The position numbers and the translations under genes are program-made. Shown piece after piece: positions 11,514 through 64,000 of a stretch of 64,000 bases of DNA. Where the stretch lies: IMG/VR virus record IMGVR_UViG_3300029841_000009, positions 1 to 64,000 of that record; one strand, 5' to 3'. This stretch comes from a virus. Its lineage: Duplodnaviria; Heunggongvirae; Uroviricota; Caudoviricetes. Position 1 is the first letter of the stretch. The number at the start of each line of letters is the position of its first letter. The notes beneath the pieces are model-generated. The model had not been told where the DNA came from. It ran no database searches and saw nothing but the letters and a program-made list of their open reading frames with translations.

Positions 11514-11521
11514 TTCCTCTC

Positions 11522-12223: not shown

Positions 12224-12516
12224 TCCTGTTCACTGGCCTCTTTGGCCATCTTCAAATACTGTTCAGGGCAATGCGCCATAACGCGCTGAAACAGTTCCAG
12301 CGCCAGATTGCGTTGCCCCTCATTAAATGCCATTGCCATAGCGTCCATCGGTGAGATAGCGGAAAACACACGGCCTTTCTCCAGCACCGACCAGACAACG
12401 CGACGCCCCTGTTCACTGCTCATGACAAAGCGAATGTCATCAATTTCACGCTGTGCCATGTCACGTTGCTTACGGGCGTTTTCTTCTTTCAGTTGATCAT
12501 CTTCGTAATCTGTCAT
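12220..12516 (-). CDS. hypothetical protein
   Basis: 98-aa ORF overlapping the portal stop and scaffold start (translational coupling). Confidence 0.4.
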   Translation of the reverse strand: MTDYEDDQLKEENARKQRDMAQREIDDIRFVMSSEQGRRVVWSVLEKGRVFSAISPMDAMAMAFNEGQRNLALELFQRVMAHCPEQYLKMAKEASEQE

Positions 12517-14192
12517 TGTGATTGCCCACCCTGACCACTAACTGCATTCGCCATAGCTGACAAAACACTCGGATCCGAAGTTTTAGCTTCGCTTAGCGTC
12601 TTGGCACCCTGTGCCGCCGCCATCCCCATCGCCATCATTTGTTGCTGCTGTTGTTGCTGTGCCCGTTGCTGGCGAGCCTGCTCAACCTGTTCCTGCGGAA
12701 CAATGACGGTTGGAGACACTCCGGACATATCAGCGAATGCATCGATCGCCTGATCAACGTTGAGTTTGTCGAGAGCTTCTGGTTTCGCTTGCGCAAGTTG
12801 ACCAATGAAGTTAACCGTGGACGCCAGACTGGACAGGCCGATAGACTTCTGCGCCTGAGCCATGACGGAAATGTATTCGACCTTCAGGGGCATACCTTCC
12901 ATCACGTCTGGCGGTGGCGGCAGCATGTTTTTACGCACCATCATCGAGAAAGAGCGGTCAATGAGAGGATTAAGACATTCGTCGTTCAGACGCTCCAGAA
13001 CCGGCCCCAACATCAGAAGTTTTTCTTCTTTCATTTCGATCACCGCTTCAACAGGCATCGAGCGGGTATTGATGTTCTGCAACATCATGAACAGATCGAC
13101 AAAGTAGGCGCTGTTAATGATTTGACGAGTGTCCTGAATGTCTGCCACCAAATCTGCTGTACTGGGGTTAACCAGATAAGCAGGCCTGAAACCATCCTGA
13201 CCAGTAATCTGATCGATATACGTGATGTCGCCAGGAAGAAGGGAGGCACGCTGATTCTTGAGGGAAGTCGGAGCAACCATCGGCGGATTGGTGGCTTTAT
13301 CAATCAACTGCGACTTGCGCTTCTGGAGAAGCTGCAATGCCTTAACAGGTCCAAGCGCCAGCATACCCGGGCATGATGATCCATAAACATCTTCGCCGTT
13401 AACTTCCCAGCGCGGGGCCATAATTGGAAACTCATCGAATCCGGACTCACGCAACAACTTGTCGTTATCGCCACCAACCTCGTAATAAACCGATTTGAAT
13501 GGCTTGTTCTTGCTATCCAGCTTCGATGTATCGCGGTCAATGTTCGGGTAAACCGAATGCATCACTTCAATCCACTTCTCGTAGGTTCCGCTTTCCCACA
13601 TGCTTTTTACGGATTCGCTGACGTTATTTAGCCCGAACTCCTGAACAAGCTGACGAACAGTCATAGAGAACTTGCGAAAACAGGTGTCCACACTGCCACG
13701 AGGTGAGTTAGCCAGGTAGTAACTGCCTATCGGGAATGGCATTGTGCGAATGATGTCCTCGTCATCCTCCAGCACTGCCATTGCACCAGTGCTGTATGTG
13801 CCGAGGCTTCCGTATAACTGCGGCAGCGACTGATAGAGATTCGACTTATTGAACATATCGTTCATGCGGTTCTGCACCGCCTCAAGCCACAACTTAACAG
13901 GGCCATAATCCATCATTTCAGGATCTGGCGTAGCCAGGCGAAACCACGGACGCGCGGGGCTTGTGATGCCTGACATCATGCCGCTGGCGAGAGTGCGCGC
14001 CGCCATAGTCCCGGTCGAATCAATAATGCGTGTATTGCGTCGATCGTTACGGTTGACCTCAGAAGTCAGAAAGCGGGAACCACGCGGGTTGATGTAATCA
14101 CTCAACTCGCGCCAGTGCGGCTCGAACGACTGACGCTCGCTTTCAAGTTGTGCGAACTGTTTGTTCAATCGCTCTTTAGTTGTTTCCGCCAT
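12513..14192 (-). CDS. portal (head-tail connector) protein
   Basis: 559 aa, first large gene after the terminase; GGAG ribosome-binding site upstream of the ATG; Gln-rich C-terminus; size matches podovirus portals. Confidence 0.65.
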   Translation of the reverse strand: MAETTKERLNKQFAQLESERQSFEPHWRELSDYINPRGSRFLTSEVNRNDRRNTRIIDSTGTMAARTLASGMMSGITSPARPWFRLATPDPEMMDYGPVKLWLEAVQNRMNDMFNKSNLYQSLPQLYGSLGTYSTGAMAVLEDDEDIIRTMPFPIGSYYLANSPRGSVDTCFRKFSMTVRQLVQEFGLNNVSESVKSMWESGTYEKWIEVMHSVYPNIDRDTSKLDSKNKPFKSVYYEVGGDNDKLLRESGFDEFPIMAPRWEVNGEDVYGSSCPGMLALGPVKALQLLQKRKSQLIDKATNPPMVAPTSLKNQRASLLPGDITYIDQITGQDGFRPAYLVNPSTADLVADIQDTRQIINSAYFVDLFMMLQNINTRSMPVEAVIEMKEEKLLMLGPVLERLNDECLNPLIDRSFSMMVRKNMLPPPPDVMEGMPLKVEYISVMAQAQKSIGLSSLASTVNFIGQLAQAKPEALDKLNVDQAIDAFADMSGVSPTVIVPQEQVEQARQQRAQQQQQQQMMAMGMAAAQGAKTLSEAKTSDPSVLSAMANAVSGQGGQSQ

Positions 14193-14206
14193 TTCAATGA
14201 CTCCGG

Positions 14207-14413
14207 TTACTGACCAAGCAGCGTTTTACCGCTGGTATTAGCGGTTGATGTGTCGCCCTGAGAACCGGTAAGCAGCGTAGAACTACGACCAGCAGCAGCG
14301 CGACGGCGACGAGTTTCTTCGTCGCGGGCATCAACAACGGCGGCATCCTGCTCCTGTGGTGCTGCCTGAACTTCTGGTGTTGCAGGCACTGATGGTGAGC
14401 TACCCATGCACAT
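14207..14413 (-). CDS. small low-complexity ORF upstream of portal
   Basis: 68-aa Ala/Thr/Gln-rich ORF; weak coding evidence. Confidence 0.2.
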   Translation of the reverse strand: MCMGSSPSVPATPEVQAAPQEQDAAVVDARDEETRRRRAAAGRSSTLLTGSQGDTSTANTSGKTLLGQ

Positions 14414-14840
14414 ATCAATGACTCCGTACGCAATTAAATTATTACCAATTTAACCACATATGATTTATTTATCGTAGATAGTTGACATTTAACGCACAAA
14501 TTATTACCTTTCAGGTAACCAAAGAATTCATTCCGGTTACTAACCTGACTGGCTTGTCGTTAAATTGAACAGGTGGAGTGAGCTTTTATTTTGAGCAGTA
14601 CGGCGTATGGCACATGCGCCGATAGCGGTCTGGATACGTTTAAGGGGCACCCTCCCTGGCTGTGGCAAACGAACCAGGTAGCCGGAATGTGCAAGTCGAG
14701 CGGTTTTATTCCGCGCACGGGGATTCACCATCCCGGCGATTCGGTGTGACGCCTCGGAAGAGACGAGGGTACAACGATGAGAGCATTTATGGAGCCGCGA
14801 CAAAGTGTGGCGCCTTAACAGGCTAAGTGCTCTCAGCGTT

Positions 14841-14917
14841 GTGGCATTAGCTCAGTCGGACAGAGCAACCGCCTTCTAAGCGGTTGGTCGCAGGTTCGAA
14901 TCCTGCATGCCACGCCA
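14841..14917 (+). tRNA. tRNA-Arg (anticodon UCU), CCA-encoded
   Basis: Cloverleaf traced by hand: acceptor GTGGCAT/ATGCCAC, D-arm GCTC/GAGC, anticodon stem ACCGC/GCGGT with loop CTTCTAA, T-arm GCAGG-TTCGAAT-CCTGC, discriminator G and CCA; closely resembles E. coli argU. Confidence 0.85.
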
Positions 14918-15115
14918 GAATCACGCCTAAGGACCGTGATGCCAGAAGTTCCAGGTGCTTGGCGGTGATGGTTTCCCTTGAAGGACTATCACCACCCTTT
15001 TTACAGCAGGACGCCATTGCGATGACTTCATGCTGTAAACCAGTACAGCCACGGAAGGCATAACTCATTGCTTCCAGTTCGCCCGATTCGCCGGGCATTT
15101 TTTTAAGGTGAGATT

Positions 15116-15487
15116 ATGAACGACCAGCAAATCGAAAAAGAAATCGTTGAGAAAGGCAAAACGGCACCGCGCGTTACGCCAGACCATATCGAAGGCATTA
15201 TTGCTCAGGAGGCATATTTCACAGCAGAAGATGGTGCCTTTGGCAAAGCCATAAAAGAGAAACATACTGGCGGAGAGGTAAACTACCAGCCGCACGAATC
15301 ACTTTCTCTGCTGACGTTCTGCGTCCTGGTGCTGCGCAACGGCTTCACCGTCACCGGAGAGAGCGCCTGTGCAAGCCCGGAAAACTTTGATGCGGAAATT
15401 GGTCGGAAGATTGCCCGGCAGAATGCTGTAAACAAAATCTGGATGCTCGAAGGTTACTTGCTGAAGCAGAAGCTAAGCGAGCAATAA
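15116..15487 (+). CDS. conserved hypothetical phage protein (moron, same strand as tRNA)
   Basis: 123-aa ORF on the opposite strand to the flanking structural operon; followed by a hairpin plus T-run. Confidence 0.5.
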   Translation: MNDQQIEKEIVEKGKTAPRVTPDHIEGIIAQEAYFTAEDGAFGKAIKEKHTGGEVNYQPHESLSLLTFCVLVLRNGFTVTGESACASPENFDAEIGRKIARQNAVNKIWMLEGYLLKQKLSEQ

Positions 15488-15504
15488 CGCCGTGACATGT
15501 CACA

Positions 15505-15537
15505 ATCAGCCAGCCTATGAGCTGGCTTTGTTTTATC
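15505..15537 (+). terminator. rho-independent terminator
   Basis: Hairpin AGCCAGC-CTATGA-GCTGGCT followed by TTGTTTTAT just after the 123-aa ORF. Confidence 0.4.
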
Positions 15538-15577
15538 CTCACCAGAGGATATCAGCAGCATTATCCCATCCAGCGGA

Positions 15578-17053
15578 TTAAGCATAGGGATCGTAATCTG
15601 TGATGGCTTTGCCTTGCTGGTTCTGCTGCCCGGGAATTCGCAGACGCTTCGACACAGGGAACGCAAACGTCAGCAGTAGCGCATCGCCTTTACCAGGAGA
15701 ACGCCCAAGTCGCTCTTTGATATCTTCCTTCGGTTCGATAACGATTTTACCGTCCACGCGAACTTTGTACTCTGCCGTCGACAGGTCGTCCGCTGTTTCC
15801 TGGTCATCCAGCATGCCGCCGAGCCTCAGCCATGTCTTGCATGAGTTGAACATCTCCCCACGCTTGTTGAGCATCTGCGGGTCAGTAGACGCGCCACCGA
15901 ACGGAACAAGTTGCCATGTACGACCCCAGCCGTCACCGATTGACTTCAAACCGGTTCCGTAACCGAAGTCGATGAACACCGCGTCAGCCTGATACTGGTC
16001 TTCAAAGTCAGCGATACGCTTCGCCATAATCAGATCGTCGGTAGTCTTGTTGCCAGTCCACAGCACCTTACTGTGTAGCCCCTGCCGCAGGTATATCACC
16101 GCGTCATCAACGCCTGAATATGCCGGGTCAACACCGATTATCACCGGAGCATGTGCAACCTGCGCAGCGGTTACCACCCGTTTCATTGCCTCGTCAGTAA
16201 GACCGGTAGGGATAAACTGCAATTCAGATGCATCAGGGAATATGCCACGCACACGGATTTTAACGAAGTCGCTATCTTCCCCGTAGTCATCAACCCATTT
16301 CTGCAACTGCTGTTTGTTGGTGCCTTCCACCGTCCTGCTGTCAATCTGCGCAGTTTTCCAGCGGTGTTTGTATTTGCGGAAACATTCACGGAAACGCCCG
16401 GTGTTACGTGTAGGGTTTCCGAAAGCCACCCAGATAATCTCAGTGTCTTCGTCCGTTAGCGCACCCTCGGCAACTTCCCACACCAGATCCGCAATGTTCG
16501 ACGCTTCATCAAATACCACAATGATGCGTTTACGCTCGTTGTGTAGTCCGGCGAATGCCTCAGTGTTGTGCTCAGACCAGGGGATTGCGTCAGCTCGCCA
16601 CCGCTTGTCGTGCCCAGGGTCATTGCTGTACATCGCGGTAGCGGTACAGGTAAACCAGTCTTTCGTGATAGCAAGGTTTGACCACTTGATAATTTCCGGC
16701 CAGGTCTTCGTTCGTAGCTGGTTGTCGGTGTTGGCGGTCACCACGACCTTACAATCCTCGCAAGTGGACATGCCCCAGTTGATCAGCATTGAGATGAATG
16801 CGGATTTACCAATACCGTGACCAGAAGCACGTGCCAGCATAAGCGGCTGATATCGCGTCTCTGGATTCTGCAGGTGATCACGTATCTCTCGGAACGCATC
16901 AGCCTGCCACTGACGTGGGCCGGTGGCATGTGCCAGTTCAGTCCCCTCTTCCCCCCATGGGAACGCATAGAGGGCATAGCCAAGCGGATCGTGAGTGAAC
17001 CCTGCAATATCCTCGATTAACTGCTCTTCAGGAGATAACGCTGTATCTGTCAC
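15578..17053 (-). CDS. terL: terminase large subunit
   Basis: 491 aa; Walker A-like GHGIGKS, Walker B-like VVFDEAS, C-terminal nuclease-like region; overlaps the small-subunit gene. Confidence 0.8.
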   Translation of the reverse strand: MTDTALSPEEQLIEDIAGFTHDPLGYALYAFPWGEEGTELAHATGPRQWQADAFREIRDHLQNPETRYQPLMLARASGHGIGKSAFISMLINWGMSTCEDCKVVVTANTDNQLRTKTWPEIIKWSNLAITKDWFTCTATAMYSNDPGHDKRWRADAIPWSEHNTEAFAGLHNERKRIIVVFDEASNIADLVWEVAEGALTDEDTEIIWVAFGNPTRNTGRFRECFRKYKHRWKTAQIDSRTVEGTNKQQLQKWVDDYGEDSDFVKIRVRGIFPDASELQFIPTGLTDEAMKRVVTAAQVAHAPVIIGVDPAYSGVDDAVIYLRQGLHSKVLWTGNKTTDDLIMAKRIADFEDQYQADAVFIDFGYGTGLKSIGDGWGRTWQLVPFGGASTDPQMLNKRGEMFNSCKTWLRLGGMLDDQETADDLSTAEYKVRVDGKIVIEPKEDIKERLGRSPGKGDALLLTFAFPVSKRLRIPGQQNQQGKAITDYDPYA

Positions 17054-17727
17054 TGATTGCCATCCTGACGTTCTTTCAGTCTCTTCCTGGCTGCCGCTAT
17101 GCGATCAGCAATTGTCACATTCACATTAACATCCAGGCGTTCTTTGAATGCGTTGACGTCGACGTGCTTACCAATCAGTTCGAGGTTCTTCACCTTGTCA
17201 GGCCATTTAATTTTTTTGAGGATGCCAACCAGCTCTTTCTCGTCTCCACGGCCTTCGAACATGTCGGCCAGTTCGAAACCTGTCAGGTACTGCCGCCAGA
17301 CCTTAGGCCATTCCGAGACCGGCTTGATGCTCATATCGTCGTTGAGAATGTCAATCACGTCCATCTGGTCGATCTCCACCAGGCGCATGAGAACGTAATC
17401 AGCACTGACGCGCATTCGTTTGTTGCGCTCCTCCATCAACTCGGCAATCCGTTTCTGAATGCGTTCATCGCGCATCATGACACTGGCTTTAACTGCCGCT
17501 GTATTTGGGGAGAATCCTGCATTAATCGCAGCCTGAGTCTGGTTTTCAGGCGTTTTGATGTATGACTGGCAATAAGCCTCCTGCATTGCTGTTAGTGGCT
17601 TAAATTGCGTTGATTTGCGTTTATAGGTTTTAGGTTCAGCAGGCATCATAACCACCGTGGTAATAGTTACCGTTGTGGTAATAGTACCATGCAAAATAAA
17701 GCCGCCATAGTTGGCGGCAGTATTCAA
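17050..17727 (-). CDS. terS: terminase small subunit
   Basis: Motif QEAYCQSYIKTPENQTQAAINAGFSPNTAAVKAS typical of small terminase DNA-binding domains; true start may be the internal Met (MMPAEP). Confidence 0.6.
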   Translation of the reverse strand: MNTAANYGGFILHGTITTTVTITTVVMMPAEPKTYKRKSTQFKPLTAMQEAYCQSYIKTPENQTQAAINAGFSPNTAAVKASVMMRDERIQKRIAELMEERNKRMRVSADYVLMRLVEIDQMDVIDILNDDMSIKPVSEWPKVWRQYLTGFELADMFEGRGDEKELVGILKKIKWPDKVKNLELIGKHVDVNAFKERLDVNVNVTIADRIAAARKRLKERQDGNQ

Positions 17728-26709: not shown

Positions 26710-27378
26710 ATGGAGTCTCGACAAATGACTATCTCTGTAGGTATTTTCAACGGAAAAGGCGGCGTAACCAAATCAACAATTGCCCGTGCTTTAGCAGTTG
26801 CTTATGCAAAGGCTGGCTGGAATGTATGCCTGATCGATATGGATGTGCTTAACGGAACGGTAACGCGTTGGGTACAACGCAGAATGGCCAACAATATCGA
26901 ACCAGCAATCGCGGCGCAGCCGTGCGGCACACCATCACAAGTCCAGAAAATCATCGAATCAGAAGTATACGACCTGGTTATCGTCGATGGCGGTGCCTAC
27001 GCATCTGAATCAGTACCGAAGCTCTCTGAATTTCTGGATATGGTTATTTTGCCAACCAGATTCTCTACCGATGACCTGGAAACCACCGTTAACACAGCTC
27101 ACGGCATCGTTAAAAAGGGTGTACCAATCAAGAAAATTTGCATGGTGTTTTCCGGCGCGGCTGAAAACGAAGCTGACTATATTGAAGCCCAAGAGTACCT
27201 GGCTAATACGCCATACTTTGTTGTCGATAAGTACATTCCCCACAAGCCAGCTCTGAGCAAAGCTCAGGATAAGGGCTTAAGCCTTATTGAGTGCTCATAC
27301 GTTGCGCCACGCAAAAAGGCAGACGATGTTATCCAGGGGATTATCAATCAGCTTGAGGCTCTGACTACTGCCGCGTAA
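26710..27378 (+). CDS. parA: ParA-family partition ATPase (small type Ib-like)
   Basis: Deviant Walker A GKGGVTKST near the N-terminus, about 220 aa with no N-terminal HTH; the start may be the second ATG (26725) preceded by GGAG. Confidence 0.8.
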   Translation: MESRQMTISVGIFNGKGGVTKSTIARALAVAYAKAGWNVCLIDMDVLNGTVTRWVQRRMANNIEPAIAAQPCGTPSQVQKIIESEVYDLVIVDGGAYASESVPKLSEFLDMVILPTRFSTDDLETTVNTAHGIVKKGVPIKKICMVFSGAAENEADYIEAQEYLANTPYFVVDKYIPHKPALSKAQDKGLSLIECSYVAPRKKADDVIQGIINQLEALTTAA

Positions 27379-35028: not shown

Positions 35029-35877
35029 TTAATGTTGGAGTGATTTCCAGGTCTTTCTTAACCTGTTATAACGCTGCTCAACGAGGGATCGTAAATATGC
35101 AAGGTCAGCACCAGGATACATGCCATCAGCAAATTCCTGACTAACCTCTCTGGTGATTTGATGACGAAGTTCGGCCTCTCCCTTTTCCCGAACAAGACGC
35201 GCAGCTCTCTCCGCTGCTTTCTGTTTTGCCTTTATCTCTCTGGCCGTCTTCCTCTGACGCCATACATTCTCCATCTGCTCCTGAATAACAATACGCTTAT
35301 AATCAGCCTCCGTTATCGCTTTTTTAAGCCGTTCGCTATTCTTCGCATTGAAGTAATTAAGTTTCTGGCTAACCGCACGTCTCCATGCTTGTTCAGTAAT
35401 ACCAACGGTTTCCAGCAGTTGATCACGAATCTCTATTTTCGCTGGCCAATACTGTTTATTCACCCGATCCCAGCGACGTTCATAATCAATAAAACCTAAC
35501 GCTTTCAGTTGCGACAACGCCCTTGTACAGCGCGTTATAGACTTGTTCCCAGCTTCGGATACGGTAGACAGGCCGCAAAAATCAGCCAACGCCTCAGCAC
35601 TAGCCAGAACCCGCTTAGAAATGATGTTTACATGGTGCAAAATCGCAGCGATCACAGCATTAATCGCCCGACGACGATGCTCGTTTATCCGGCGCTTCCG
35701 CTCTGACGGTTGATTAACGTAGAACGCAACCTCACACGTAAGATCACGCCCATTAATGCGCTGTAAAGCATCAGATAACACCAGCGGCAGCTTGTGCGTA
35801 TGGTGCTTTGGAGGCTGGAACTCCGGCGACAAATTACAAACGTAAGCTGAACGTAGAGACGGCATTGGTCTATCCAT
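35029..35877 (-). CDS. repA: IncFII-type replication initiator RepA (RepA1-like)
   Basis: 282 aa from the internal Met (MDRPMPSLR); SITRCTRALSQLKALGFIDYE and an Arg/Lys-rich C-terminus closely match R100/R1 RepA1 as recalled from memory. Confidence 0.75.
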   Translation of the reverse strand: MDRPMPSLRSAYVCNLSPEFQPPKHHTHKLPLVLSDALQRINGRDLTCEVAFYVNQPSERKRRINEHRRRAINAVIAAILHHVNIISKRVLASAEALADFCGLSTVSEAGNKSITRCTRALSQLKALGFIDYERRWDRVNKQYWPAKIEIRDQLLETVGITEQAWRRAVSQKLNYFNAKNSERLKKAITEADYKRIVIQEQMENVWRQRKTAREIKAKQKAAERAARLVREKGEAELRHQITREVSQEFADGMYPGADLAYLRSLVEQRYNRLRKTWKSLQH

Positions 35878-35964
35878 ATGTTCGCTCTTGCGTCCACGGA
35901 AAACCAACGTATAATGGGAGTTGTCGAGGCGCCCATGGATTGTTGTTGTTGGTTTTCCGTGGAT

Positions 35965-36005
35965 GTCGCAAGAAGCCCGCAGATTTATCTGCGGGCTTTT
36001 TGTTT
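35965..36005 (+). terminator. rho-independent terminator on the strand antisense to the repA leader (CopA-like antisense RNA 3' end)
   Basis: AAGCCCGCAGA-TTTA-TCTGCGGGCTT followed by TTTTGTTT about 100 nt upstream of the repA start, on the opposite strand. Confidence 0.45.
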
Positions 36006-36372
36006 CCATATCTGGTCACTTTCCAACCAGACACCCACAATCATAACCACGTTACGTGGTTTTAAGAGAACTCTACCACAACACTTTCGGTCATGCACGA
36101 AGTCTCTCACTGATCGAACGATAATCCACCAGTAAAAGGATCTAAATTGGATCTCGTTTTGCGAGCATCATACTACTGGCCTAACTCCAGTCAATGATTC
36201 CCAGCCAGAAACCTGCGGTAAACTCATCGTTCAGCAATATGCTGTCCGGCTTCAAAGATAAGGTGACATCATCCCTTAACAGCGCGGCCAGCTCCGTTAA
36301 AGGGTTGTTTTGACTTAATGCAAAACCGCTAATAAACATATTGGCGGTTTTGTTCCTTAAATCATCTTGCCT

Positions 36373-55168: not shown

Positions 55169-57025
55169 CTATATGGTTACGCCTTTACTTATAACTCTAC
55201 GGCGTCTTCTACGTATACCTGACGAGTTCTGCACATACACATTACCTCGCATTTCCTGTTCGGCAAGCCAGTTAAAATTAGGGTTCAGAATTTCCATCGC
55301 GGCAGTTGCATAGTTACGGCAATCAAGAGGCTCGTTACGCTCGTAGACTTTCACCCACTTTTCTTTTGTCTGCCCATTTTTATATTCAAATATTTTCTTC
55401 TCTGATAATAATCCTTTAAAGTATTCGGTATCATATCCTCTGTCAGAATCTAATGGGAAATGCATATAACCAGGACCAGGATCATGTAGTTTAATTCTTG
55501 CCATGATGGTCCCTTTACCATCATCAACCCCCAAATTAAACAACATAGCACCCACACGGTTATTATTACTTGGCTTTCCTATAAATGGTAAACCTACCCC
55601 ACCACGCCCCCTGATAGAGTATATTCGCCTTGATTCTCTCGGCTTAGTAAAGCGATATACCTCTGTCGTAAAATGCCCACCAGAGTCAATACAAACGGAA
55701 GAAATCTGTAATTTTCGACCGTCACGGAATGACCAGCTACGGAGTAAGTATTCATCAAGTTGTTTCCAGACAACATCTTGTGCGGGATCACCTGGGAATA
55801 TTTTATATTCTATCCCCCATGACTCCTTACCTTTTCCCCAACCGACCAATTCACAAACTAAATACGTGTCCTGTACGTCAACACCAGCACTTAACAATAA
55901 AACATCATCTGGTAAAAACTCTTCAAACCTTATTCTGCGTTGCAACAAGTATTCAGGATCGATATCGTCTTTAGCATCCTCTTTCCATGGCTCACCCAGC
56001 TTAAGGTTAATAAACTCCATTAATCCATTTTTATCGCGGTTTCTGGTTGCTTCCGTAAATTCTTCAACCAGCTCTGACAATGCAACCCACGGGGAGTAAA
56101 GACTGTTAATATGAAAACCAACAATACCTTTAACTCCAGTATGTTCAGCTATCCATACCCCCTTCGCCAACCAATCAACGTCTGGTTTACCAGATCCGCG
56201 CATAATCCCGCCGCACTCACAGCACTCATATCTGGCCGTTTCCGGTAACGCCTCACCTGAATCGCTCTTATCCCATCTGACTTGCGACCATTTCATCACC
56301 TGCATGGTGCCACAACATGGGCAAGGAACATGGTAGTAACGCTGATCGGAGAGCTTAAACCACTTGTGGATTTTGCTCGTTTCCTCCAAAACAGGAGTAG
56401 AAACAAAAACTTTCTTACGATTATGAAAGTTGGTAGTACGCTGAATACCTAGTTTTAGTGGGTCGCCCTCCTGCGTCACACCGTAACGATCAATCTCATC
56501 AGCTAACAGTATTCGAATTGGCCTGGATGCAAGACCTGCTGGGGAATTAGCACCAACAAGTGCTATATATCCACCAGCGTAATGCTTCATACGTATAGTC
56601 GTGCTGGACTTTTTGGCTGCACCGCGCCCCTCTTTCCCTTCATGCAGCTTGTGTTTCAAACCAGGGGAATATTTGAACGTCGGATCAATACGCTCTTTTG
56701 AAAAAGCCTCAGCCGCCTCTACCGTTGGATAAATCATCAACTGAGGAGATGGCTCCTGATCTGCAAAGTAACCCATAACATTTAGCTGTAATTCGGATTT
56801 ACCAATTTGCGAGCTACATTGCATCACTACTGTTTCTGTATCAGCGTCACCAATAACATCCATTGGTTCACGCAAATATGGCACTCGGCTTGTACGCCAC
56901 GGCCCTGGCTCTGGAGACGTTCCCGGCGCTACATGACGATACTTATCAGCCCATTCGGAAACAGTTAGCCGTGATTTAGGGCGAAGCGCACGGAAAAAAG
57001 CGGTGCTCCATACTGTTTCGCCCAT
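55169..57025 (-). CDS. terL: terminase large subunit (lambda gpA-like)
   Basis: 618 aa; ATPase motifs (QIGKSE ... ILLADEIDRY) and a zinc-ribbon-like CPCCG ... CCECGG as in the GpA family. Confidence 0.8.
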   Translation of the reverse strand: MGETVWSTAFFRALRPKSRLTVSEWADKYRHVAPGTSPEPGPWRTSRVPYLREPMDVIGDADTETVVMQCSSQIGKSELQLNVMGYFADQEPSPQLMIYPTVEAAEAFSKERIDPTFKYSPGLKHKLHEGKEGRGAAKKSSTTIRMKHYAGGYIALVGANSPAGLASRPIRILLADEIDRYGVTQEGDPLKLGIQRTTNFHNRKKVFVSTPVLEETSKIHKWFKLSDQRYYHVPCPCCGTMQVMKWSQVRWDKSDSGEALPETARYECCECGGIMRGSGKPDVDWLAKGVWIAEHTGVKGIVGFHINSLYSPWVALSELVEEFTEATRNRDKNGLMEFINLKLGEPWKEDAKDDIDPEYLLQRRIRFEEFLPDDVLLLSAGVDVQDTYLVCELVGWGKGKESWGIEYKIFPGDPAQDVVWKQLDEYLLRSWSFRDGRKLQISSVCIDSGGHFTTEVYRFTKPRESRRIYSIRGRGGVGLPFIGKPSNNNRVGAMLFNLGVDDGKGTIMARIKLHDPGPGYMHFPLDSDRGYDTEYFKGLLSEKKIFEYKNGQTKEKWVKVYERNEPLDCRNYATAAMEILNPNFNWLAEQEMRGNVYVQNSSGIRRRRRRVISKGVTI

Positions 57026-57030
57026 GAGGT

Positions 57031-57591
57031 TTATTCTTCCTGCTTAATAAATCGGGATTCCTGGAGCGCCTGAAGCGCAAAATTAATCTCGTCTTCAATA
57101 ATGCGTTCGATCTCCCTGGCTGTTTTGCCTTCACAACGGGGAGCTGCTCTTGGAGCAATACTAAATAAGCGGCTACGCAATTCATTAGCTGCCAGAAATG
57201 CATCATCCCTGACCGCATCTTTAGCGATGAGAGAGCCTTCCTTTTCTTCAAATTCAAGGCGTTTCAGCTTTGCCTGATAAATTTTTTCTGCGGTCTTAGC
57301 CTTGTTGAATTGCACCGCAACACCGGAAGTACCACCAGCTAATCCGGCATCATCAGCGGGTAACTCTGGTTGTTCCGAAGATATCCCATGCCCTCTTTTT
57401 CCATTTTCAGCAGATACCTCACGACCAACCTGTCGGCTCGCTTCATAAGCCGCACTGGCTTTATCAAAATCCAGCTTGCCGCTTTTCAGCACTGGAATGC
57501 GACCGGAACGACAGAGCTTCGTAACCATTGCCGGAGAAATACCTTTCCGGCGAGCAAACTCTGACTTACTGACGATGGCCATTACTTGCAA
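57031..57591 (-). CDS. terS: terminase small subunit (HTH DNA-binding)
   Basis: 186 aa; N-terminal helix-turn-helix (SKSEFARRKGISPAMVTKLCRSGRIP) immediately upstream of terL. Confidence 0.6.
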   Translation of the reverse strand: MQVMAIVSKSEFARRKGISPAMVTKLCRSGRIPVLKSGKLDFDKASAAYEASRQVGREVSAENGKRGHGISSEQPELPADDAGLAGGTSGVAVQFNKAKTAEKIYQAKLKRLEFEEKEGSLIAKDAVRDDAFLAANELRSRLFSIAPRAAPRCEGKTAREIERIIEDEINFALQALQESRFIKQEE

Positions 57592-58172
57592 CCATTAGCA
57601 AGATACTGAACAAATCCCTCATGCGTTTCATGCGCGTCGTGGTACTGACGATAAACATCCAGCAACAATGCAATTTCCATATCCGTCGCGGGAATACGTT
57701 CTTTATCAATAGCCAGGTACTTAATTTGAACAACAGGGGAAGAATTATCGTCTTCTTCCTGCGGCTGTTCATCGCTTAACATTTCGTCAAGCTCTGCATC
57801 ATTAAACCCAAGCAGATCAATATCAAAATCATCATCCATTAACTCTTTGACTTCTTCGGCCAGAAGCTGCATATCCCAGCCAGCATTTAAGGCCAGCTTG
57901 TTATCTGCAATCCTGTAAGCCTTCTTCTGTTTTTCAGAAAGGTTACTCAACCGAATCGCCGGAACTTTATCCATTTCCAGAATTTCGGCTGCTGCAAGCC
58001 GACCATGCCCCGCAATCAGTTCATTCTTTTCATCGATCAGCACAGGATTAGTGAAACCGAACTCACGGATACTGTTCACCAACTGTTCAACCTGCTCATC
58101 TGAATGAGTCCGTGAATTTTTGGCGTATCTGAGCAGCTTACCGACTGGTAAATATTCGATTTTTAGAGCCAT
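57582..58172 (-). CDS. ParB-like nuclease N-terminal domain protein
   Basis: 196 aa; ParB/Srx-type motif ...NPVLIDEKNELIAGHGRLAAA...; paralog of 60839..61462. Confidence 0.6.
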   Translation of the reverse strand: MALKIEYLPVGKLLRYAKNSRTHSDEQVEQLVNSIREFGFTNPVLIDEKNELIAGHGRLAAAEILEMDKVPAIRLSNLSEKQKKAYRIADNKLALNAGWDMQLLAEEVKELMDDDFDIDLLGFNDAELDEMLSDEQPQEEDDNSSPVVQIKYLAIDKERIPATDMEIALLLDVYRQYHDAHETHEGFVQYLANGCK

Positions 58173-58729
58173 TTTTTAACCGCCATAACACAACAGGTTA
58201 AAGAAAACTGTTTAACTTATTGATACTAAAAGAGAAAAATGACGATCTTTTTACTCATAAAAAATCACACAAACCAGCATAATCATCTGATTTTATTAAG
58301 TTTTTATAAGTAAAAAGGATCTTGAGATGGTGTTTTGGTTAAAAGATTGGATGTATTTGCATGATTTATAACGATTTTTATCAGAACAACATCACATTGG
58401 TTAAAGATCTGCGCGTATCTTGATGATCTAAAAGAAAATTTTCTACTTTCTTTTTACCAGCACAAATACAGCAAAAAATCACGTTTTCCCGATATTTTTC
58501 AATGAGATGAGTAAATTTCTTTTACCGCAACTTTTAACCTAACTTTTTTCACGTTTAGCTAGCCGAACATCGGGGTTCGAATGACCCGCATCCAACGCTT
58601 TTGTCCAGAAGGACCCAATTCTGCCGGACGATGAAACGATGCTCGTGCACCCCCACAGACAGCCAGCGAGCGACGCTACAGAACACAGTGAATACACTCT
58701 GCATAACAACACCATCAACCACACGATGA

Positions 58730-59449
58730 TTAACGAGAGAAGGTCTTGGAAAGAATGTCATCAATAGCCTTTGTGACTTCATCAGCAAACGCATCCTCAC
58801 CAGCACGCAGCGCCACGCCATGCCAATCAAGACGCTGCGAATAGTTAGGTTGCTGGATAAACGTAAGGATCAACGTAGGACGCCGCCCAACGCGCTGCCA
58901 GACGCCTGGTTGAAGCGGGTTACTTGTACCAGGTCGAACAACAAAAAACTCCGTAGGCTTGCCCTGACGGCGATTTTGATGCGCATCTCGCTGAACTCTT
59001 AGGCCAGATAAGACCTGCTGTAATTGCCCCCGCGAAATATTCCCGTATTTGTCCAGCTTTGCGCCGGGACCAGGAGCAATCTGCCAGCCGTTAGGCAAAT
59101 ATCCACCAGCCCTTAGCGCCCCTTCTGAGCGTTTGTACTGTCGTTGGCCACCTTCGATTTGCGGAGTCAACGTTACAGGGGCTGGCGTTCCTCCCCATTC
59201 ACGAGCATACACAATGGCTGTAGGATCACTCTTCTTTGCGGCCAAAACGTAAGTAGAGTTCTGAATCCACGGCGTGGGCCTGTCAAATACCCGATTAATT
59301 TCATTCTTAATCGCAGCCTGAGAAGCCTTTGCCGTTCTGGTTGCCGCAAGCGCCATTGCGAACGGCAATTCGCGTTCTTCAAGGCGCTGGAGTTGTCGTT
59401 GAATATCCTGAGAAGAAAAATCCATCTTTATCTCAATTCTGTCAGCCAC
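58730..59449 (-). CDS. hypothetical protein
   Basis: 239-aa ORF between the ParB-like genes. Confidence 0.4.
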   Translation of the reverse strand: MADRIEIKMDFSSQDIQRQLQRLEERELPFAMALAATRTAKASQAAIKNEINRVFDRPTPWIQNSTYVLAAKKSDPTAIVYAREWGGTPAPVTLTPQIEGGQRQYKRSEGALRAGGYLPNGWQIAPGPGAKLDKYGNISRGQLQQVLSGLRVQRDAHQNRRQGKPTEFFVVRPGTSNPLQPGVWQRVGRRPTLILTFIQQPNYSQRLDWHGVALRAGEDAFADEVTKAIDDILSKTFSR

Positions 59450-59465
59450 CAGCGCCTCCTACACA

Positions 59466-60845
59466 CTACTTAATCAACGGCCGGAAAGCCGCCAGCACAT
59501 CATCAGATCGTCCGATTGTTGAACCACCAGGCAACGGCAACTCAAACTCAAAACGAACAGCTTTCTCCAGACTCGCCCAACTAAGGGAATCATCGTTAAT
59601 GACGTGCAAATACCAGCTCTTACAGTTGAATATTGACCGCTTAATCCTGAAACCATGTACACGACACAACTGCTTCACTTCCTCATCAGAGTGAAACTTC
59701 TGGTAAAACCAGTGCCCCTTCCGGTACAACGCGGTAAAACCGTCATGATCAATAAAATAAAGCCGGCTTTTGGAACTCGCCGCTTGTGTTTGCTTCAGGA
59801 CTGTTTCCAGTTCTCCACGGCTACGGCCAGAAAAGAATATTGACCCACCAGCTTTACACAGGCCTTTCAGAACCGTCAGAACGGACCATTCAGCCTCGAC
59901 ACTATCGACCGAGTTCAAAACGCTATCGCAAATCACGTAGTCGTAACGCCCTCGCGTTTTTAAGTCGTCCACCAGCGTATCAATCATCCGGTTTGTTGCG
60001 GCCCTATCCAGAGTGTTTCCAGCGCCCTTACGGCGGAAAAGCTCGAGATCATGCAGGTTATATCCCTTTGCCCTGAGCATTCGCGCGTAGTCTCCCTGCC
60101 CCGAACCAAAATCAATTCCTCTTGGCGTCTTGGCAATGATCGGGAGGATCAACGACTCATACAGATTTGATTTCAGGCTGCCACCATTACGCAACCGCAT
60201 AAGCTGCGCATACGTCTGGATGTATGTTGTTTTCTCCAGATGAGAATACTCAAATACACCATAAGTTTTATTCAGATAACTTTGGTATTTTTCCTTCTCA
60301 ACATCAGGGATCACAAACACCGTTAGCGGTGTGCGCGTCATTTTCGCTGCTAATGCATACTGAGCACAGTGAATAACCTCACCAGACTGAGTAGCAACAC
60401 AACCACCCCACGGACCATACTTGATAACCAGTTCCGCTATGTTCTTTCGAACATATGCCATTTTCGCGCGCATATTGCCTGAGATCTGGCTTGCCGATAC
60501 CTGAACAAAACCATGCTTATCTTCCAGACCGGACACCCTGCAACGCTCATCTCCGCTATCAAAATCCGTTCCGTTATGCAGTTGGTTAAACCGTACTTCG
60601 TCGTATACCGTCGTTTCACAGGGCAACACATACACCGCAGCACGCGTTATTCCCAACTTACGTAGCGCCTTCGTCCTTTGGTGTCCCGCCACCAGCAAAT
60701 CGCCGCGCACTATCAATGGCTTCACAAGCCCCAGCTCCCTGACGCTTTCCGCCAGCCTCGCAAGATCATCCTCACCGATAAAACGCGGGTTATATTCCGC
60801 GCCGCGTAGGTGCGTTATGTCGTAATTGAGGTGAAGCATCAGCAC
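59466..60845 (-). CDS. ParB-like N-terminal domain fused to a class I SAM-dependent methyltransferase
   Basis: 459 aa; N-terminal ParB motif (LIVRGDLLVAGHQRTKAL), C-terminal motif I IDFGSGQGDY and acidic post-I residues; no DPPY/NPPY motif, so the substrate is unclear. Confidence 0.6.
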   Translation of the reverse strand: MLMLHLNYDITHLRGAEYNPRFIGEDDLARLAESVRELGLVKPLIVRGDLLVAGHQRTKALRKLGITRAAVYVLPCETTVYDEVRFNQLHNGTDFDSGDERCRVSGLEDKHGFVQVSASQISGNMRAKMAYVRKNIAELVIKYGPWGGCVATQSGEVIHCAQYALAAKMTRTPLTVFVIPDVEKEKYQSYLNKTYGVFEYSHLEKTTYIQTYAQLMRLRNGGSLKSNLYESLILPIIAKTPRGIDFGSGQGDYARMLRAKGYNLHDLELFRRKGAGNTLDRAATNRMIDTLVDDLKTRGRYDYVICDSVLNSVDSVEAEWSVLTVLKGLCKAGGSIFFSGRSRGELETVLKQTQAASSKSRLYFIDHDGFTALYRKGHWFYQKFHSDEEVKQLCRVHGFRIKRSIFNCKSWYLHVINDDSLSWASLEKAVRFEFELPLPGGSTIGRSDDVLAAFRPLIK

Positions 60846-61462
60846 ACCTCCCCAGCCAGCAATGCGGATACAAATCCGATATAGCTGCCATTATCATCAA
60901 CATAACGAGACACCGCGCAGTCAAAACGATCCGCTTCCTCATCCGTTGCCGGGATTTTATGACCTCCAAATGACAGGTACTGAACTTTTACGCCTGATTT
61001 GGCCTCATCCTTCTCAAATGGGATATCCATACCCTCTGTGTCATCGTAGACTGCCGCACTCAATAAGTTATCCAGTTCGCGCTGAGTAAAACCAATTGAG
61101 TCCAGAGCAAAATCATCGGCCGCAAGATCTGCAAGCTCCGCGCTTAACAACTCTTCATCCCAACCAGCATTCAGCGGAATACGGTTGTCGGCCAGACGAT
61201 ATGCCTTCTTCTGATTCTCCGTTAGCCCAGCCAGAACAATGCAGGGAACATCATCCATCCCCAACTGAGTGGCCGCAGCAATTCGACCATGACCAGCAAT
61301 TACAACGTTGTTCTCGTCTATCAGGATCGGATTAGTCCATCCGTACTCCTGTATGCTGGCAACAATCTGATCTACCTGCTCCACGGAGTGTGTGCGAGCG
61401 TTCTTTTCATAACCAATCAACACAGAAAGTGGTAAAGAAACCACATTAAGATGTTTTGTCAT
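60839..61462 (-). CDS. ParB-like nuclease N-terminal domain protein
   Basis: 207 aa; ...NPILIDENNVVIAGHGRIAAA...; about 60 percent identical to 57582..58172 over the N-terminal domain. Confidence 0.6.
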   Translation of the reverse strand: MTKHLNVVSLPLSVLIGYEKNARTHSVEQVDQIVASIQEYGWTNPILIDENNVVIAGHGRIAAATQLGMDDVPCIVLAGLTENQKKAYRLADNRIPLNAGWDEELLSAELADLAADDFALDSIGFTQRELDNLLSAAVYDDTEGMDIPFEKDEAKSGVKVQYLSFGGHKIPATDEEADRFDCAVSRYVDDNGSYIGFVSALLAGEVC

Positions 61463-61696
61463 GCCGTTTATCCGCTAAAATCCCCTCGCTTGTGCAAGCA
61501 AGTGGGCCTCGGTTTGTATCCACGGCACCCTGTGGGTATGAATGACTGTCGTCAGGTCGCAACTGACGGCGGTCGCCCACCTTCCAGTAATAAAAAAGCC
61601 ACCAGCATTAACTCCACAGCGAGCAGGAGTTAATGAGGCAGCTTTGGTTTGCGCATTATCGCAGCCCCTGATTAGCACAAGAGCTGCTGTAATGCG

Positions 61697-62107
61697 TTAC
61701 GCAGGGATCAAACAGATGTGGCCGTTATTTACCTCAATACGGGAATATTCCGGCTTACCATCCACGATTCCGGTAATGACAAGTTCGCCATCAGGCGACC
61801 ATTCTTCTTTGTCGTCTTCAAGTACCGCGCCTTCTGGCAAATCAATACAGGCAAAAACAGGGCAGCCAGGATGACGTTTATCCTCCATCGCAATCAGCAT
61901 CGACTCACCGAACCACTCTGTGGTAGCACGGCCATCAGCCGCCTGATAGTGAATCAGATACTGGTTTTCGCCATTTGCATACTGAGCACGGGCTTGAACT
62001 TCTCCCCACTCTTCACTGATACGCATTGTTACCAGTTGGGATAATTCAAACTTAAACGGAACAGACTCTGCACCAATGGCAATCGGTTTATCTTCTTTCT
62101 TTTCCAT
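61697..62107 (-). CDS. hypothetical protein
   Basis: Internal Met (MEKKEDKP) with an AGGTGA ribosome-binding site, inside track ORF 61697..62176; a hairpin terminator lies upstream. Confidence 0.4.
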   Translation of the reverse strand: MEKKEDKPIAIGAESVPFKFELSQLVTMRISEEWGEVQARAQYANGENQYLIHYQAADGRATTEWFGESMLIAMEDKRHPGCPVFACIDLPEGAVLEDDKEEWSPDGELVITGIVDGKPEYSRIEVNNGHICLIPA

Positions 62108-62156
62108 AACATCACCTGAAAATAAAAAGCCCCGCGACACCGCGAGGCTGTAAGAG

Positions 62157-62309
62157 TTACTTTCGATATAAATCAAGGCGCATTTGCTCCCGCTTAAGCC
62201 GAAAAGCCCTCTGCGCCACTAAGATGCGCCACAGGACACCAGCGATAACCACCAGCGAGATACAAAAACACACGGCCACAACCATCAGAAAAATGCCAAC
62301 ACCATTCAT
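62157..62309 (-). CDS. small membrane protein (50 aa, not in ORF track)
   Basis: Hand translation gives MNGVGIFLMVVAVCFCISLVVIAGVLWRILVAQRAFRLKREQMRLDLYRK; ATGA start/stop overlap with the upstream 70-aa membrane ORF. Confidence 0.35.
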   Translation of the reverse strand: MNGVGIFLMVVAVCFCISLVVIAGVLWRILVAQRAFRLKREQMRLDLYRK

Positions 62310-62518
62310 GAAACTATCCATTCTTCAATGAATATCTCCAGTAATGTCAAGAGATACGCCGTCCCCAGCGCGGTTCCTACCGATATAGCTAAGACAAACC
62401 TCAAAGATAACGAGGTGTCTTTCGCTTTTCTCCAGACGTAAGCGCCAGCTAGAAATACCAACAAATCTCTTATTGGAAGCGGAAACCAGAACAAATCACT
62501 CGGCATAAGCACGATCAT
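62306..62518 (-). CDS. small membrane protein (70 aa, two predicted transmembrane segments)
   Basis: Hydrophobic segments LLVFLAGAYVW and FVLAISVGTALGTAYLLTLL. Confidence 0.4.
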   Translation of the reverse strand: MIVLMPSDLFWFPLPIRDLLVFLAGAYVWRKAKDTSLSLRFVLAISVGTALGTAYLLTLLEIFIEEWIVS

Positions 62519-62795
62519 CTTCCGCTGCTGATTTACATGCCGCAGTTACTGATATATTGATAACCGGTGCGCTAATCGTGATGGACGACGCTGTCGGTTG
62601 ACGCGATATAACTGAACGATGGCTATCAATGAAGTCCACAATCTCATTCAGGCACTCTTTAGCTGCCTCATCGTGACTTTTTCCGTATGCTTCATGGAGG
62701 ACTTTCATCCTCATCATTGCTCCGTCACATATAGTCGAAAGCGCGTAAAGCACATCACTAACCGCCATTTCTTTTTTGGTGCTTGTCGAAGGCAT
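62496..62795 (-). CDS. hypothetical protein
   Basis: 99-aa ORF preceded by a hairpin terminator of the upstream operon. Confidence 0.4.
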   Translation of the reverse strand: MPSTSTKKEMAVSDVLYALSTICDGAMMRMKVLHEAYGKSHDEAAKECLNEIVDFIDSHRSVISRQPTASSITISAPVINISVTAACKSAAEDDRAYAE

Positions 62796-62869
62796 CCCAT
62801 GTTCTCCTTTGTCTGGATGTAAAAAAGCCCCGGCAATTGCCGAGGCTCGTTGTTCGTTATCGTTACGGT

Positions 62870-63070
62870 TTAATGCTCGCGTCGTCCGGCGACAACTTCG
62901 GATTTGTATTTCAGGTCGCCCAGCAAGAATTGCAGTTTAAGCATCTTTGCCGCCGTGTAGTTCCCTGATTCCACAACCTCTTTCATGAGGTCATAAACGG
63001 CCGCTACATCATCAGCCAGGAACTCTTTGCGTTGCTGCTCAGTCGCACGTTTGAAGGAAATACGCATCAC
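62870..63070 (-). CDS. hypothetical protein (second gene of repeat-C cassette)
   Basis: 66 aa; ATGA overlap with the upstream gene; hairpin plus T-run downstream. Confidence 0.4.
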   Translation of the reverse strand: MMRISFKRATEQQRKEFLADDVAAVYDLMKEVVESGNYTAAKMLKLQFLLGDLKYKSEVVAGRREH

Positions 63071-63336
63071 TCATCATCTCCTGCCGCACATACAACCTCA
63101 CAAAAAAAATCAGCAGAATGTTTCTCCTTGAACGAATGACGCTCAAAACCGCACTCAATATCAGGCGCAAAAACATCCACCACATACGGTCTTTCAGAAT
63201 GTTTGTTTTCCCAACGATAAACCGTAGTGACGTTGAAATGTTTTAACGCTTCACGGAACTCAACGCTGCCAGTCAGGTTTTTTGAGGTCAGGTATTGCAG
63301 GAGGTTTTTTACTACTTCACGGTCTTGTACTTTCAT
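63067..63336 (-). CDS. hypothetical protein (first gene of repeat-C cassette)
   Basis: 89-aa ORF starting at the repeat. Confidence 0.45.
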   Translation of the reverse strand: MKVQDREVVKNLLQYLTSKNLTGSVEFREALKHFNVTTVYRWENKHSERPYVVDVFAPDIECGFERHSFKEKHSADFFCEVVCAAGDDE

Positions 63337-63449
63337 CGGGTTATCTCCGGTTTAACCAGGGCGGGTATCGCTCGGTTTCGGGTATAACCATAGGAAATTT
63401 TTTCCCACCTGTAAAGCACTTTTATATAAATCTATAATTATATAATTCT
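63334..63449 (-). repeat. promoter-leader repeat, copy C
   Basis: Nearly identical to copy B across about 115 bp including the start-codon context. Confidence 0.7.
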
Positions 63450-64000
63450 ATACCACTTGCCAGAGAGCATCATGCAACTGGATACTTCCATTGCACTGGT
63501 TGCCCCAGCCATGCCAACCATCAGGTAAATCACCGCGAGCAAACAGCTCAATACGAGGAACATCACCTAACAGCCTTACCAGCTTGTCACGAACCACATC
63601 AGGCTTCCGAGAATGCTCCAGACGAGGCGATGTAAACGACTGAATGATCCCCGCATCAAGGCGGGTCGGCAATTTGCCTTTTACCGCAAACAAGCAATCT
63701 TCACTGTTTGCACGAGTCATATGCCCCATCCCCATCACCAGCTTATCTGGTTGTCGGCTACCACATTTGTTCCATGTGAAGCCCTTCATGGTCATAAGCC
63801 TGAATCCCCATGCTTTCACCACCAGCAACGCTTCTTCTGGCTGAGTCGGAACCCACCACATGGCCAACAAACACGATTCAGGATTAGCAAGCTGCCAGAC
63901 AGGAATACGAGCAATATCCTCAGCTTTCATCGTTGGATACTTAAAACCAGCTCCACGATTCCCATCCTTACACTTATCTTTGTATTCCCAGGGGGGATCT
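63448..64000 (-). CDS. MT-A70-family N6-adenine DNA methyltransferase (5' end beyond window)
   Basis: Track ORF 63448..63930 stays open in frame to the window edge, where the upstream codons read DPPWEYKDK (the catalytic DPPW motif). Confidence 0.6.
   Translation of the reverse strand, partial: DPPWEYKDKCKDGNRGAGFKYPTMKAEDIARIPVWQLANPESCLLAMWWVPTQPEEALLVVKAWGFRLMTMKGFTWNKCGSRQPDKLVMGMGHMTRANSEDCLFAVKGKLPTRLDAGIIQSFTSPRLEHSRKPDVVRDKLVRLLGDVPRIELFARGDLPDGWHGWGNQCNGSIQLHDALWQVV

Follow-up and report, generated by a model that had tools for sequence, protein, structure and literature searches.

What do ParB-fold genes do beside a phage terminase when one of them is fused to a methyltransferase that lacks the usual DNA-methylase motif? 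The question is raised by the 53–64 kb region of a 64,000-nucleotide stretch of tailed-phage DNA (IMG/VR record IMGVR_UViG_3300029841_000009, positions 1 to 64,000, hereafter the window), of which positions 20738–64000 belong to a phage-plasmid of Escherichia coli. Every gene at 53–64 kb is on the minus strand, and the ParB and methyltransferase genes lie after the lysis genes and before those for the small (TerS) and large (TerL) terminase subunits. Listed as they would be transcribed, the parts of the region begin with an MT-A70-family adenine methyltransferase gene that the window edge truncates; then come several small open reading frames (ORFs) of no known function, a stand-alone ParB gene (ParB-207), a ParB-methyltransferase fusion gene, a gene for a 239-residue protein, a 558-nt gap, a second stand-alone ParB gene (ParB-196), TerS, TerL, a gene for a small head-tail-type protein, and the portal gene.

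The original prediction, made from the letters of the window, grouped three ParB-domain proteins and two methyltransferases into one cluster, took it for a possible DNA-modification or anti-restriction module or a ParB-nuclease system, and called the triplication of the ParB domain unusual. Our reading, drawn from sequence comparison and to be given a probability of about one half, is that the region is a ParB-terminase accessory locus of a temperate myovirus kept as a plasmid, in which a late-expressed DNA-modification pair would be formed by the fusion and its ParB partner. A role in DNA modification is the best-supported one, by gene context and not by chemistry, because the locus fits the ParB-terminase locus and its ParB module elsewhere joins DNA-modifying enzymes. 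That part of the original prediction stands, whereas the single five-gene cluster separates into three units, interrupted by the gene for the 239-residue protein and the gap.

Conservation of the ParB and fusion gene pair

The first unit comprises ParB-207 (60839..61462, minus strand) and the fusion (59466..60839, minus strand, 457 residues from its ATG), joined by a stop/start overlap in which the TGA of ParB-207 runs into the ATG of the fusion (TGATG). The second comprises ParB-196 (57582..58172, minus strand) and TerS (57031..57582, minus strand; phrog_57, E 7e-42), joined likewise by a TAA/ATG overlap (TAATG), and the third is the independent MT-A70 gene (63448..64000, minus strand). ParB-207 and the fusion share the strand of TerS and lie 1.9–3.9 kb ahead of its start, which ParB-196 overlaps.

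A profile of the fusion family recovered 76 viral loci, 58 of which carried enough upstream sequence to be judged. A stand-alone ParB gene (~190–250 residues) stood directly upstream of the fusion in 56 of these 58, overlapping the fusion gene in 49 of the 56 and separated from it by a 1-nt gap in one more (longest possible ORF starts). The pairing persisted to 33% identity between fusions, and separate checks of a Bradyrhizobium prophage and of two metagenome contigs showed the same pair. The fusion family as a whole had 716 detected relatives, the full-length ones listed being ~455–480 residues long and 45–74% identical, from enterobacteria to Bradyrhizobium, and the partner ParB had thousands.

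The layout with a ParB gene just upstream of the terminase recurred beside a GpA-type terminase in 17 of 54 related loci, and beside terminases of other types in 8 of 10 further loci that were sampled. The downstream terminases carried GpA, TerL_ATPase/nuclease or Terminase_6 domains (GpA-type, HK97-type and T4-type), and the occurrence of the pair with three terminase types speaks for a general role and against one bound to a single mechanism of packaging. TerL of the window (55169..57025, minus strand, lambda GpA type by RefSeq annotation) had as its matches in related loci the large ORFs that follow the fusion (E 1e-100 to 1e-142 by phmmer), with GpA_ATPase and GpA_nuclease domains identified in that ORF at two loci (L005, L007). 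The genes flanking the pair varied, and no candidate substrate gene was conserved with it.

Two close relatives (L088 and L090) with a near-identical TerL (E = 0) keep the 239-residue protein gene, the gap, ParB-196, TerS and TerL; neither ParB-207 nor the fusion was found within 6 kb in either, and both contigs are absent from the recoveries of the fusion scan. MT-A70 and the 239-residue protein gene accompany the fusion only among close relatives of the phage-plasmid, the latter gene occurring in L088 and L090 as well, and both genes were left out of the module because they are not conserved with the pair past those close relatives.

ParB-196 and ParB-207 are paralogous, as originally proposed (48% identity over the full length, E 5e-62). 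An extra stand-alone ParB copy was present in only 7 of the 76 loci, 4 of the 7 being close relatives of the phage-plasmid, so the triplication is a lineage-specific duplication of the fusion's partner ParB and loses the special standing it had been given. Where it could be computed, against a relative with 79–90% protein identity, the ratio of nonsynonymous to synonymous substitution (dN/dS) was 0.03–0.07, with synonymous sites saturated. Both stand-alone copies are under strong constraint, and the genes of the locus are not pseudogenes, because their dN/dS is this low; the pseudogene alternative raised with the original prediction is thereby excluded.

A ~145-residue protein follows the fusion in 28 of 59 related loci (for example L020 1610–2041, L031 2045–2479 and L056 9419–9883) and is absent from the window. 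Its invariant residues include H35, C36, C72, N83, H85, C137, R138 and N139, with the motifs HCARCL, CGVS and TCRNFQFG, and it had no Pfam, PHROG or PDB relative; an apparent relationship to polyubiquitin was rejected, since it arose artificially from adding up matches across repeats (E-value per stretch, 250). This protein may be a third component of the module, in the place of which the lineage of the window has the 239-residue protein gene. Amidoligase_2 genes were seen near the ParB/fusion pair and the terminase in unrelated prophages (L003 and L004, both Bradyrhizobium, 11054–17196; L007, 10904–12289), in the two Bradyrhizobium loci beside GGACT/AIG2-like genes.

Domain structure of the fused enzyme

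The ParB, MT-A70 and methyltransferase domains called originally were all recovered by Pfam and PHROG profile searches. For the fusion, ParB_N scored 24.3 bits, slightly under its 26.3-bit cut-off, and Methyltransf_23 31.9 bits, above its 27-bit cut-off; phrog_5475 matched across the full length (E 6e-265). The structural model was of high confidence scores (predicted local distance difference test, pLDDT, 92.6; predicted template modelling score, pTM, 0.88) and comprised a ParB fold (residues ~1–95), an uncharacterised middle domain (~100–215) and, as its C-terminal half, a class I S-adenosylmethionine (SAM) methyltransferase (~225–457). Residues 1–80 aligned with Spo0J, with M. xanthus and Caulobacter ParB, and with Noc, and the ParB fold was 26–28% identical to those of the stand-alone ParBs.

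The methyltransferase domain has a Rossmann-like fold, a glycine-rich motif I (IDFGSGQGD) and the acidic residue after strand 2. The SAM-binding motifs are invariant across the fusion family, which argues for a catalytically active methyltransferase, as far as can be predicted from conservation. A search of the protein for (D/N/S)PP(Y/F/W) returned no match, in agreement with the original observation that a DPPY-type motif is lacking; there is no 'PP' in the whole protein, and the motif IV position reads CDSVLNSVD.

Strands (E) and helices (H) succeed one another in the middle domain as they do in a ParB fold, E H E E H E H, and at the places of KP and GHQR in the first fold it carries invariant GxWG and HxxQYA. 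As a candidate second ParB fold, residues 100–200 were not significant in profile-profile comparison (local E 0.086, probability <1%), and that the middle domain may be a degenerate second ParB fold is a conjecture.

The stand-alone ParBs, their tails and their enzyme company

ParB-196 matched Pfam ParB_N at E 3.8e-8 (33.7 bits, above the 26.3-bit cut-off) and ParB-207 at 23.9 bits, slightly under it; both matched phrog_620 at E ~1e-75 (4.6e-75 for ParB-196). The model of ParB-207 comprised a ParB fold (1–95), a helical stretch (103–139), a disordered acidic linker (140–158) and a small beta-beta-alpha-alpha domain at the C-terminus (161–202). A DNA-binding helix-turn-helix (HTH) was looked for in this model and in the PDB profile matches, which cover residues 4–93 only, and none was found; none of the three ParB proteins has such a domain. 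All three ParB folds keep the Box II arginine of G-x-x-R (AGHGR, AGHGR and AGHQR), along with the N-x-R and asparagine motifs. Nucleoside triphosphate (NTP) binding by the ParB folds is plausible, as predicted from the retained Box II arginine and N-x-R.

The first 150 residues of ParB-196 and ParB-207 also matched the ParB part of ParB-DNA methylase profiles (phrog_498, E ~1e-50; PADLOC MTase_II, E 2e-40). The genes accompanying this module were surveyed in its 80 closest viral relatives, a sample among at least 600 candidates. Forty-nine of the 80 were fused to DNA methylases with the consensus TDPPY and FGGSGTT. The remaining 31 were stand-alone, the next gene being Mom in 10, a TET-associated glycosyltransferase in 8, an N6_N4 methylase in 3, a PAPS reductase in 2 and a C5 methylase in 1; a Citrobacter prophage, for example, has the order lysis genes, ParB, glycosyltransferase, TerS, TerL.

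The C-terminal tails of the ParBs clustered by the neighbouring enzyme, one type being found in 56 of 57 fusion partners, another in 8 of 8 glycosyltransferase partners, and two further types with Mom genes; ParB-196 and its orthologues have the same tail type as the fusion partners. Across these groups the N-terminal module is ~50–60% identical. Shared descent contributes to the pattern. Since the N-terminal module is conserved while the tails are unalignable between groups, the pattern fits a predicted role of the tail as a partner-specific interaction domain. No published description was found of a near-obligate ParB partner of a ParB-Methyltransf_23 fusion, of tail-to-enzyme co-variation, or of such a ParB-linked methyltransferase with chemistry unlike that of known DNA methylases.

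ParB genes were also seen between TerL and the portal gene, in L119 (79–5578, a ParB fusion of ~411 residues) and in L124 (1932–9854, two consecutive ParB-containing ORFs). These fusions belong to the set with the DNA-methylase-motif consensus and are not upstream of the terminase.

Proposed function and alternatives

As late genes between those for lysis and packaging, the genes of the locus would act on phage DNA, modifying it shortly before it is packaged or while this happens. A single message with coupled translation, produced late in the lytic cycle, would yield ParB-207 and the fusion as a two-protein enzyme, in which the ParB-207 tail, perhaps with NTP-dependent engagement of both ParB folds, would activate the methyltransferase or load it on double-stranded DNA, an action that would parallel that of the ParBs that switch on phage thymine dioxygenases. 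MT-A70 would separately make N6-methyladenine, and ParB-196, the duplicate partner ParB coupled to TerS, may link modification to the packaging complex or may act alone. In this proposal we infer DNA to be the substrate of the fused methyltransferase, NTP to be bound by the ParB folds, the partner to activate or target the enzyme, and the benefit to be protection from host restriction.

Several observations weigh against it. The weak link is the predicted substrate: the fused methyltransferase is without any motif of known DNA base methylases, its fold and sequence neighbours are small-molecule, protein and tRNA methyltransferases, and this resemblance comes close to the finding that the original prediction had named as contrary to a DNA-modifying role. 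MT-A70 is upstream of the ParB genes and not between ParB and terminase. ParB-196 stays beside TerS in relatives that lack the fusion (L088 and L090), and because it is retained there at least this copy has a role independent of the fusion. In all three ParB folds a histidine replaces the catalytic glutamate of GERR, as seen in alignments to Spo0J and M. xanthus ParB (histidine at the glutamate of AGERR; YNPR, NARTH instead of YQPR), so a clamp cycle driven by cytidine triphosphate (CTP) hydrolysis, as in chromosomal ParB, would be doubtful. In the one characterised ParB-enzyme pair, mutations of the NTP-binding residues did not abolish activation (PMC13229309).

The substrate carries the alternative that survives best, which we hold to be possible though not likely: that the pair methylates something other than DNA, be it a protein of the phage or of the host (a component of the capsid or of packaging, for instance), tRNA or another RNA, or else a small molecule or nucleotide bound in the ParB/Srx pocket, the proximity of the terminase reflecting late timing only. 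The neighbours of the enzyme and its lack of DNA-methylase motifs are what such a reading would lead one to expect, and a tRNA gene is present near the locus in the phage-plasmid, beyond the window. It has to contend with a partner ParB module that in its other settings is almost always fused to a DNA-modifying enzyme or encoded beside one, with a position that matches the ParB-terminase locus, and with flanks in which no candidate substrate gene is conserved with the pair.

Tentative, and on balance unlikely, is a scheme in which an NTP-gated heterodimer of ParB-207 and the fusion, formed through their two different ParB folds, would load a non-canonical methyltransferase onto phage DNA and bring about a DNA methylation that no known class of DNA methylase produces, with ParB-196 tying it to the terminase. 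If true, methylation would be expected at a non-amino base position, on the backbone, or at the cohesive ends.

A nuclease or helper role for the ParB folds is improbable. They would act as nucleases, nickases or NTP-gated clamps that aid the terminase at the cohesive-end site (cos), like the HNH proteins of HK97-like phages, or that attack host or competitor DNA, with the methyltransferase as an accessory or regulatory part. In favour of this, the translation of ParB-196 is coupled to that of TerS, no other gene lies between it and the probable cos, and some relatives keep it without the fusion, and nicking or DNase activity has been described for the B. cereus ParB-methylase (PMC3592412) and for Osa (PMC5512222). 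The fusion pair, however, accompanies three unrelated terminase types, including GpA with its own nuclease domain, and the invariant SAM-binding motifs argue for an active methyltransferase; nuclease activity, for its part, is not readable from sequence.

That the ParBs are plasmid-partition (centromere-binding) proteins of the phage-plasmid is very improbable and was rejected, for although related phage records annotate a 'chromosome (plasmid) partitioning protein' and the element is a plasmid with a ParA gene, the ParB proteins lack an HTH in the model (PDB matches cover residues 4–93 only) and score 16–40 bits against the 58.45-bit cut-off of TIGR00180, ParA (26710–27378, with its own small downstream gene) and RepA (35029–36009) lie ~30 kb from the ParB-fold genes, and the same genes occur in the late operon of integrated prophages with no ParA nearby.

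The DNA-modification reading bears on a wider question, in that before a 2026 study (PMC13229309) the role of ParB-fold proteins adjacent to phage terminases rested on prediction alone. The fusion family provides a second, very widespread test case, genetically compact and carried on a phage-plasmid of human E. coli isolates. If the fused enzyme acts on DNA, it would represent a new chemical class of DNA methyltransferase and possibly a new way to evade restriction; if DNA is not its substrate, DNA modification would not be the sole function of the ParB-terminase locus. Either way, the link between ParB tail and enzyme is a direct handle for interaction studies.

The intergenic gap, the genome end and the Chi sites

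The unannotated 558-nt intergenic region (58173..58729) is the probable cos or packaging-recognition region. It begins, after the 239-residue protein gene, with a GC-rich stretch of ~170 nt and continues in its ParB-196-proximal two-thirds as AT-rich sequence with many A/T tracts. No gene is annotated in it in RefSeq or in the phage records, and Rfam and tRNA scans of 55–64 kb gave nothing above threshold (the one match, isrJ, scored 22 bits where the cut-off is 37). Within the gap lie the points at which three Yersinia phage records were made linear; these boundaries are weak evidence for a cos and were rejected as proof of one, being inconsistent in position (~100 nt apart) and belonging to records flagged as circular.

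On its minus strand the window has 18 Chi sites (GCTGGTGG) and on the other strand none; shuffled sequence would lead one to expect 1.8. Ten of them fall in 56.5–64 kb (56571–63826) and none in 30.8–56.5 kb (post hoc P ~4e-6), and eight form an array (59103..63826, minus strand) in one orientation over the ParB and methyltransferase genes, so that Chi is dense on the high-coordinate side of the gap. The orientation is that recognised by RecBCD entering at the gap and moving toward the end with the 239-residue protein gene, the fusion and ParB-207. Two relatives (L012 and L015) conserve the array despite saturated synonymous sites, including two positions inside the fusion gene, and it is present too in a relative without the fusion. 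Chi sites of lambdoid phages cluster at the right genome end, oriented for RecBCD entry (PMC12315714, 2025), and because the pattern is the same the array is a trait already known from such genome ends and does not belong to the ParB genes as such. It supports a genome end within the gap; given that end, the gene cluster straddles both ends of the virion DNA.

Neighbouring genes and signals

The MT-A70 gene encodes DPPW at 63999–63988, at the window edge as first observed, and its N-terminus is beyond the window. It matched Pfam MT-A70 (PF05063) at E 7e-17 (62.3 bits against a 23.9-bit cut-off), phrog_359 ('DNA methyltransferase', E 1e-82) and PADLOC MTase_II (E 4e-65); the full gene encodes 195 residues in NZ_CP069971, where it is annotated as an MT-A70 family methyltransferase. 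PADLOC returned methylase-type matches only, and no defence system. The N-terminus of TerS gave HTH-like matches to the AbiEi_4 and Cox-like families.

The 239-residue protein (58730..59449, minus strand), encoded by the last gene before the gap, matched phrog_1924 ('minor tail protein', E 3e-97), and a Pfam search gave no match. The tail label looks doubtful given the last-before-cos position. A distant homologue (E 3e-23) was found just upstream of the ParB locus in an unrelated phage (L133, 726–1556).

Promoter and terminator scans found the region no richer than shuffled sequence. Two strong terminator-like hairpins on the minus strand (62128–62149 and 62825–62848), each with a 9–10 bp stem, 7 GC pairs and a T run, lie inside the same-strand string of genes between MT-A70 and ParB-207, and their presence within this late gene string suggests that the late genes are read through by antitermination.

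The phage-plasmid and the window

A 7-kb block of the locus matched 74 of 5,426 complete E. coli genomes, at ≥95% identity in 72 of the 74, and was ≥80% covered in 64 of the 5,426, nearly always on plasmids of ~47–49 kb. By place, 221 of 226 matches were on plasmids, and the best-matching records listed were 47–57 kb long. One matching plasmid, NZ_CP069971 (48.6 kb), carries an IncFII-type RepA, ParA, a RelE toxin and a CI-like repressor together with a contractile tail of P2-like type and a head and terminase resembling those of lambda; since plasmid genes (RepA, ParA) and phage tail, head and terminase are joined in it, the element is a phage-plasmid of ~48 kb, of E. coli, with isolates from humans. 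Yersinia and Escherichia phage records are related to it.

Positions 1–20737 of the window come from a different phage, the portal, terminase, capsid and SLT transglycosylase genes of which match chromosomal E. coli prophages. It joins the phage-plasmid near 20738, in the early region, near Ead/Ea22-like and DUF3560 genes. Because the first 20.7 kb are of a different phage, the window is one of three things: a cointegrate or recombinant, a copy that has integrated, or two sequences joined into one.

Comparison with known systems

The ParB-terminase large subunit (ParB-Tls) locus of phages and prophages is outlined in PMC6536676 and PMC4738411, attributed to Iyer et al. 2013 (Iyer, Zhang, Burroughs and Aravind). 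In these outlines the genes for DNA modification either form a fusion with a ParB-like gene or lie between that gene and TerL, and the predicted task of the locus is a packaging-linked modification of phage DNA. The present locus is similar to that outline in having ParB-fold genes directly upstream of the terminase in the late region, with methyltransferases fused or adjacent. It differs in that its fused enzyme is a Methyltransf_23-type class I methyltransferase without DNA-methylase motifs, and so not of a recognised DNA-modifying class, in that a separate near-obligate ParB partner is present along with a second paralogue coupled to TerS, and in that the recognisable DNA methylase, MT-A70, is upstream of the ParB genes, not between ParB and terminase.

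With ParB-N6_N4 methyltransferase fusions (Paracoccus prophages; the B. cereus ParB-methylase) the locus shares a closely related ParB module (phrog_498, at the E-value given above over 150 residues) and the same place upstream of the terminase. Those fusions, however, are single polypeptides with DPPY and FGGSGTT, whereas here the module is separate and accompanies an enzyme of another methyltransferase class with its own divergent ParB fold (26–28%). The retained G-x-x-R arginine is a feature shared with sulfiredoxin, SerK and SbnI (ATP-using phosphotransferases of the ParB/Srx fold) and with PadC and KorB (CTP-binding ParB-like proteins), from all of which the C-terminal region and the genomic context differ.

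The phage thymine dioxygenase activator ParB (ParB176/5mYOX176; PMC13229309, PNAS 2026) has a nucleotide-binding N-terminal domain and a C-terminal domain, is without an obvious DNA-binding domain, and activates its cognate dioxygenase on double-stranded DNA with relatively specific pairing. ParB-207 is likewise a stand-alone ParB of the same architecture beside a putative cognate enzyme, and the tail co-variation described above resembles that specificity. The partner in the dioxygenase system is a TET/JBP dioxygenase without its own ParB fold, and activation, demonstrated there, would be by analogy here.

The domain architecture of the fusion itself, a ParB-CTPase fold with Methyltransf_23 (PF13489), is listed as phage-enriched by Kaljevic et al. 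(PNAS 2025; PMC12704722), whose remarks on it note prophage enrichment and suggest anti-defence or phage-host roles. The passages of that survey dealing with this architecture give no function, partner gene or terminase linkage, and to them the present analysis adds a near-obligate upstream ParB and the specificity of its tail.

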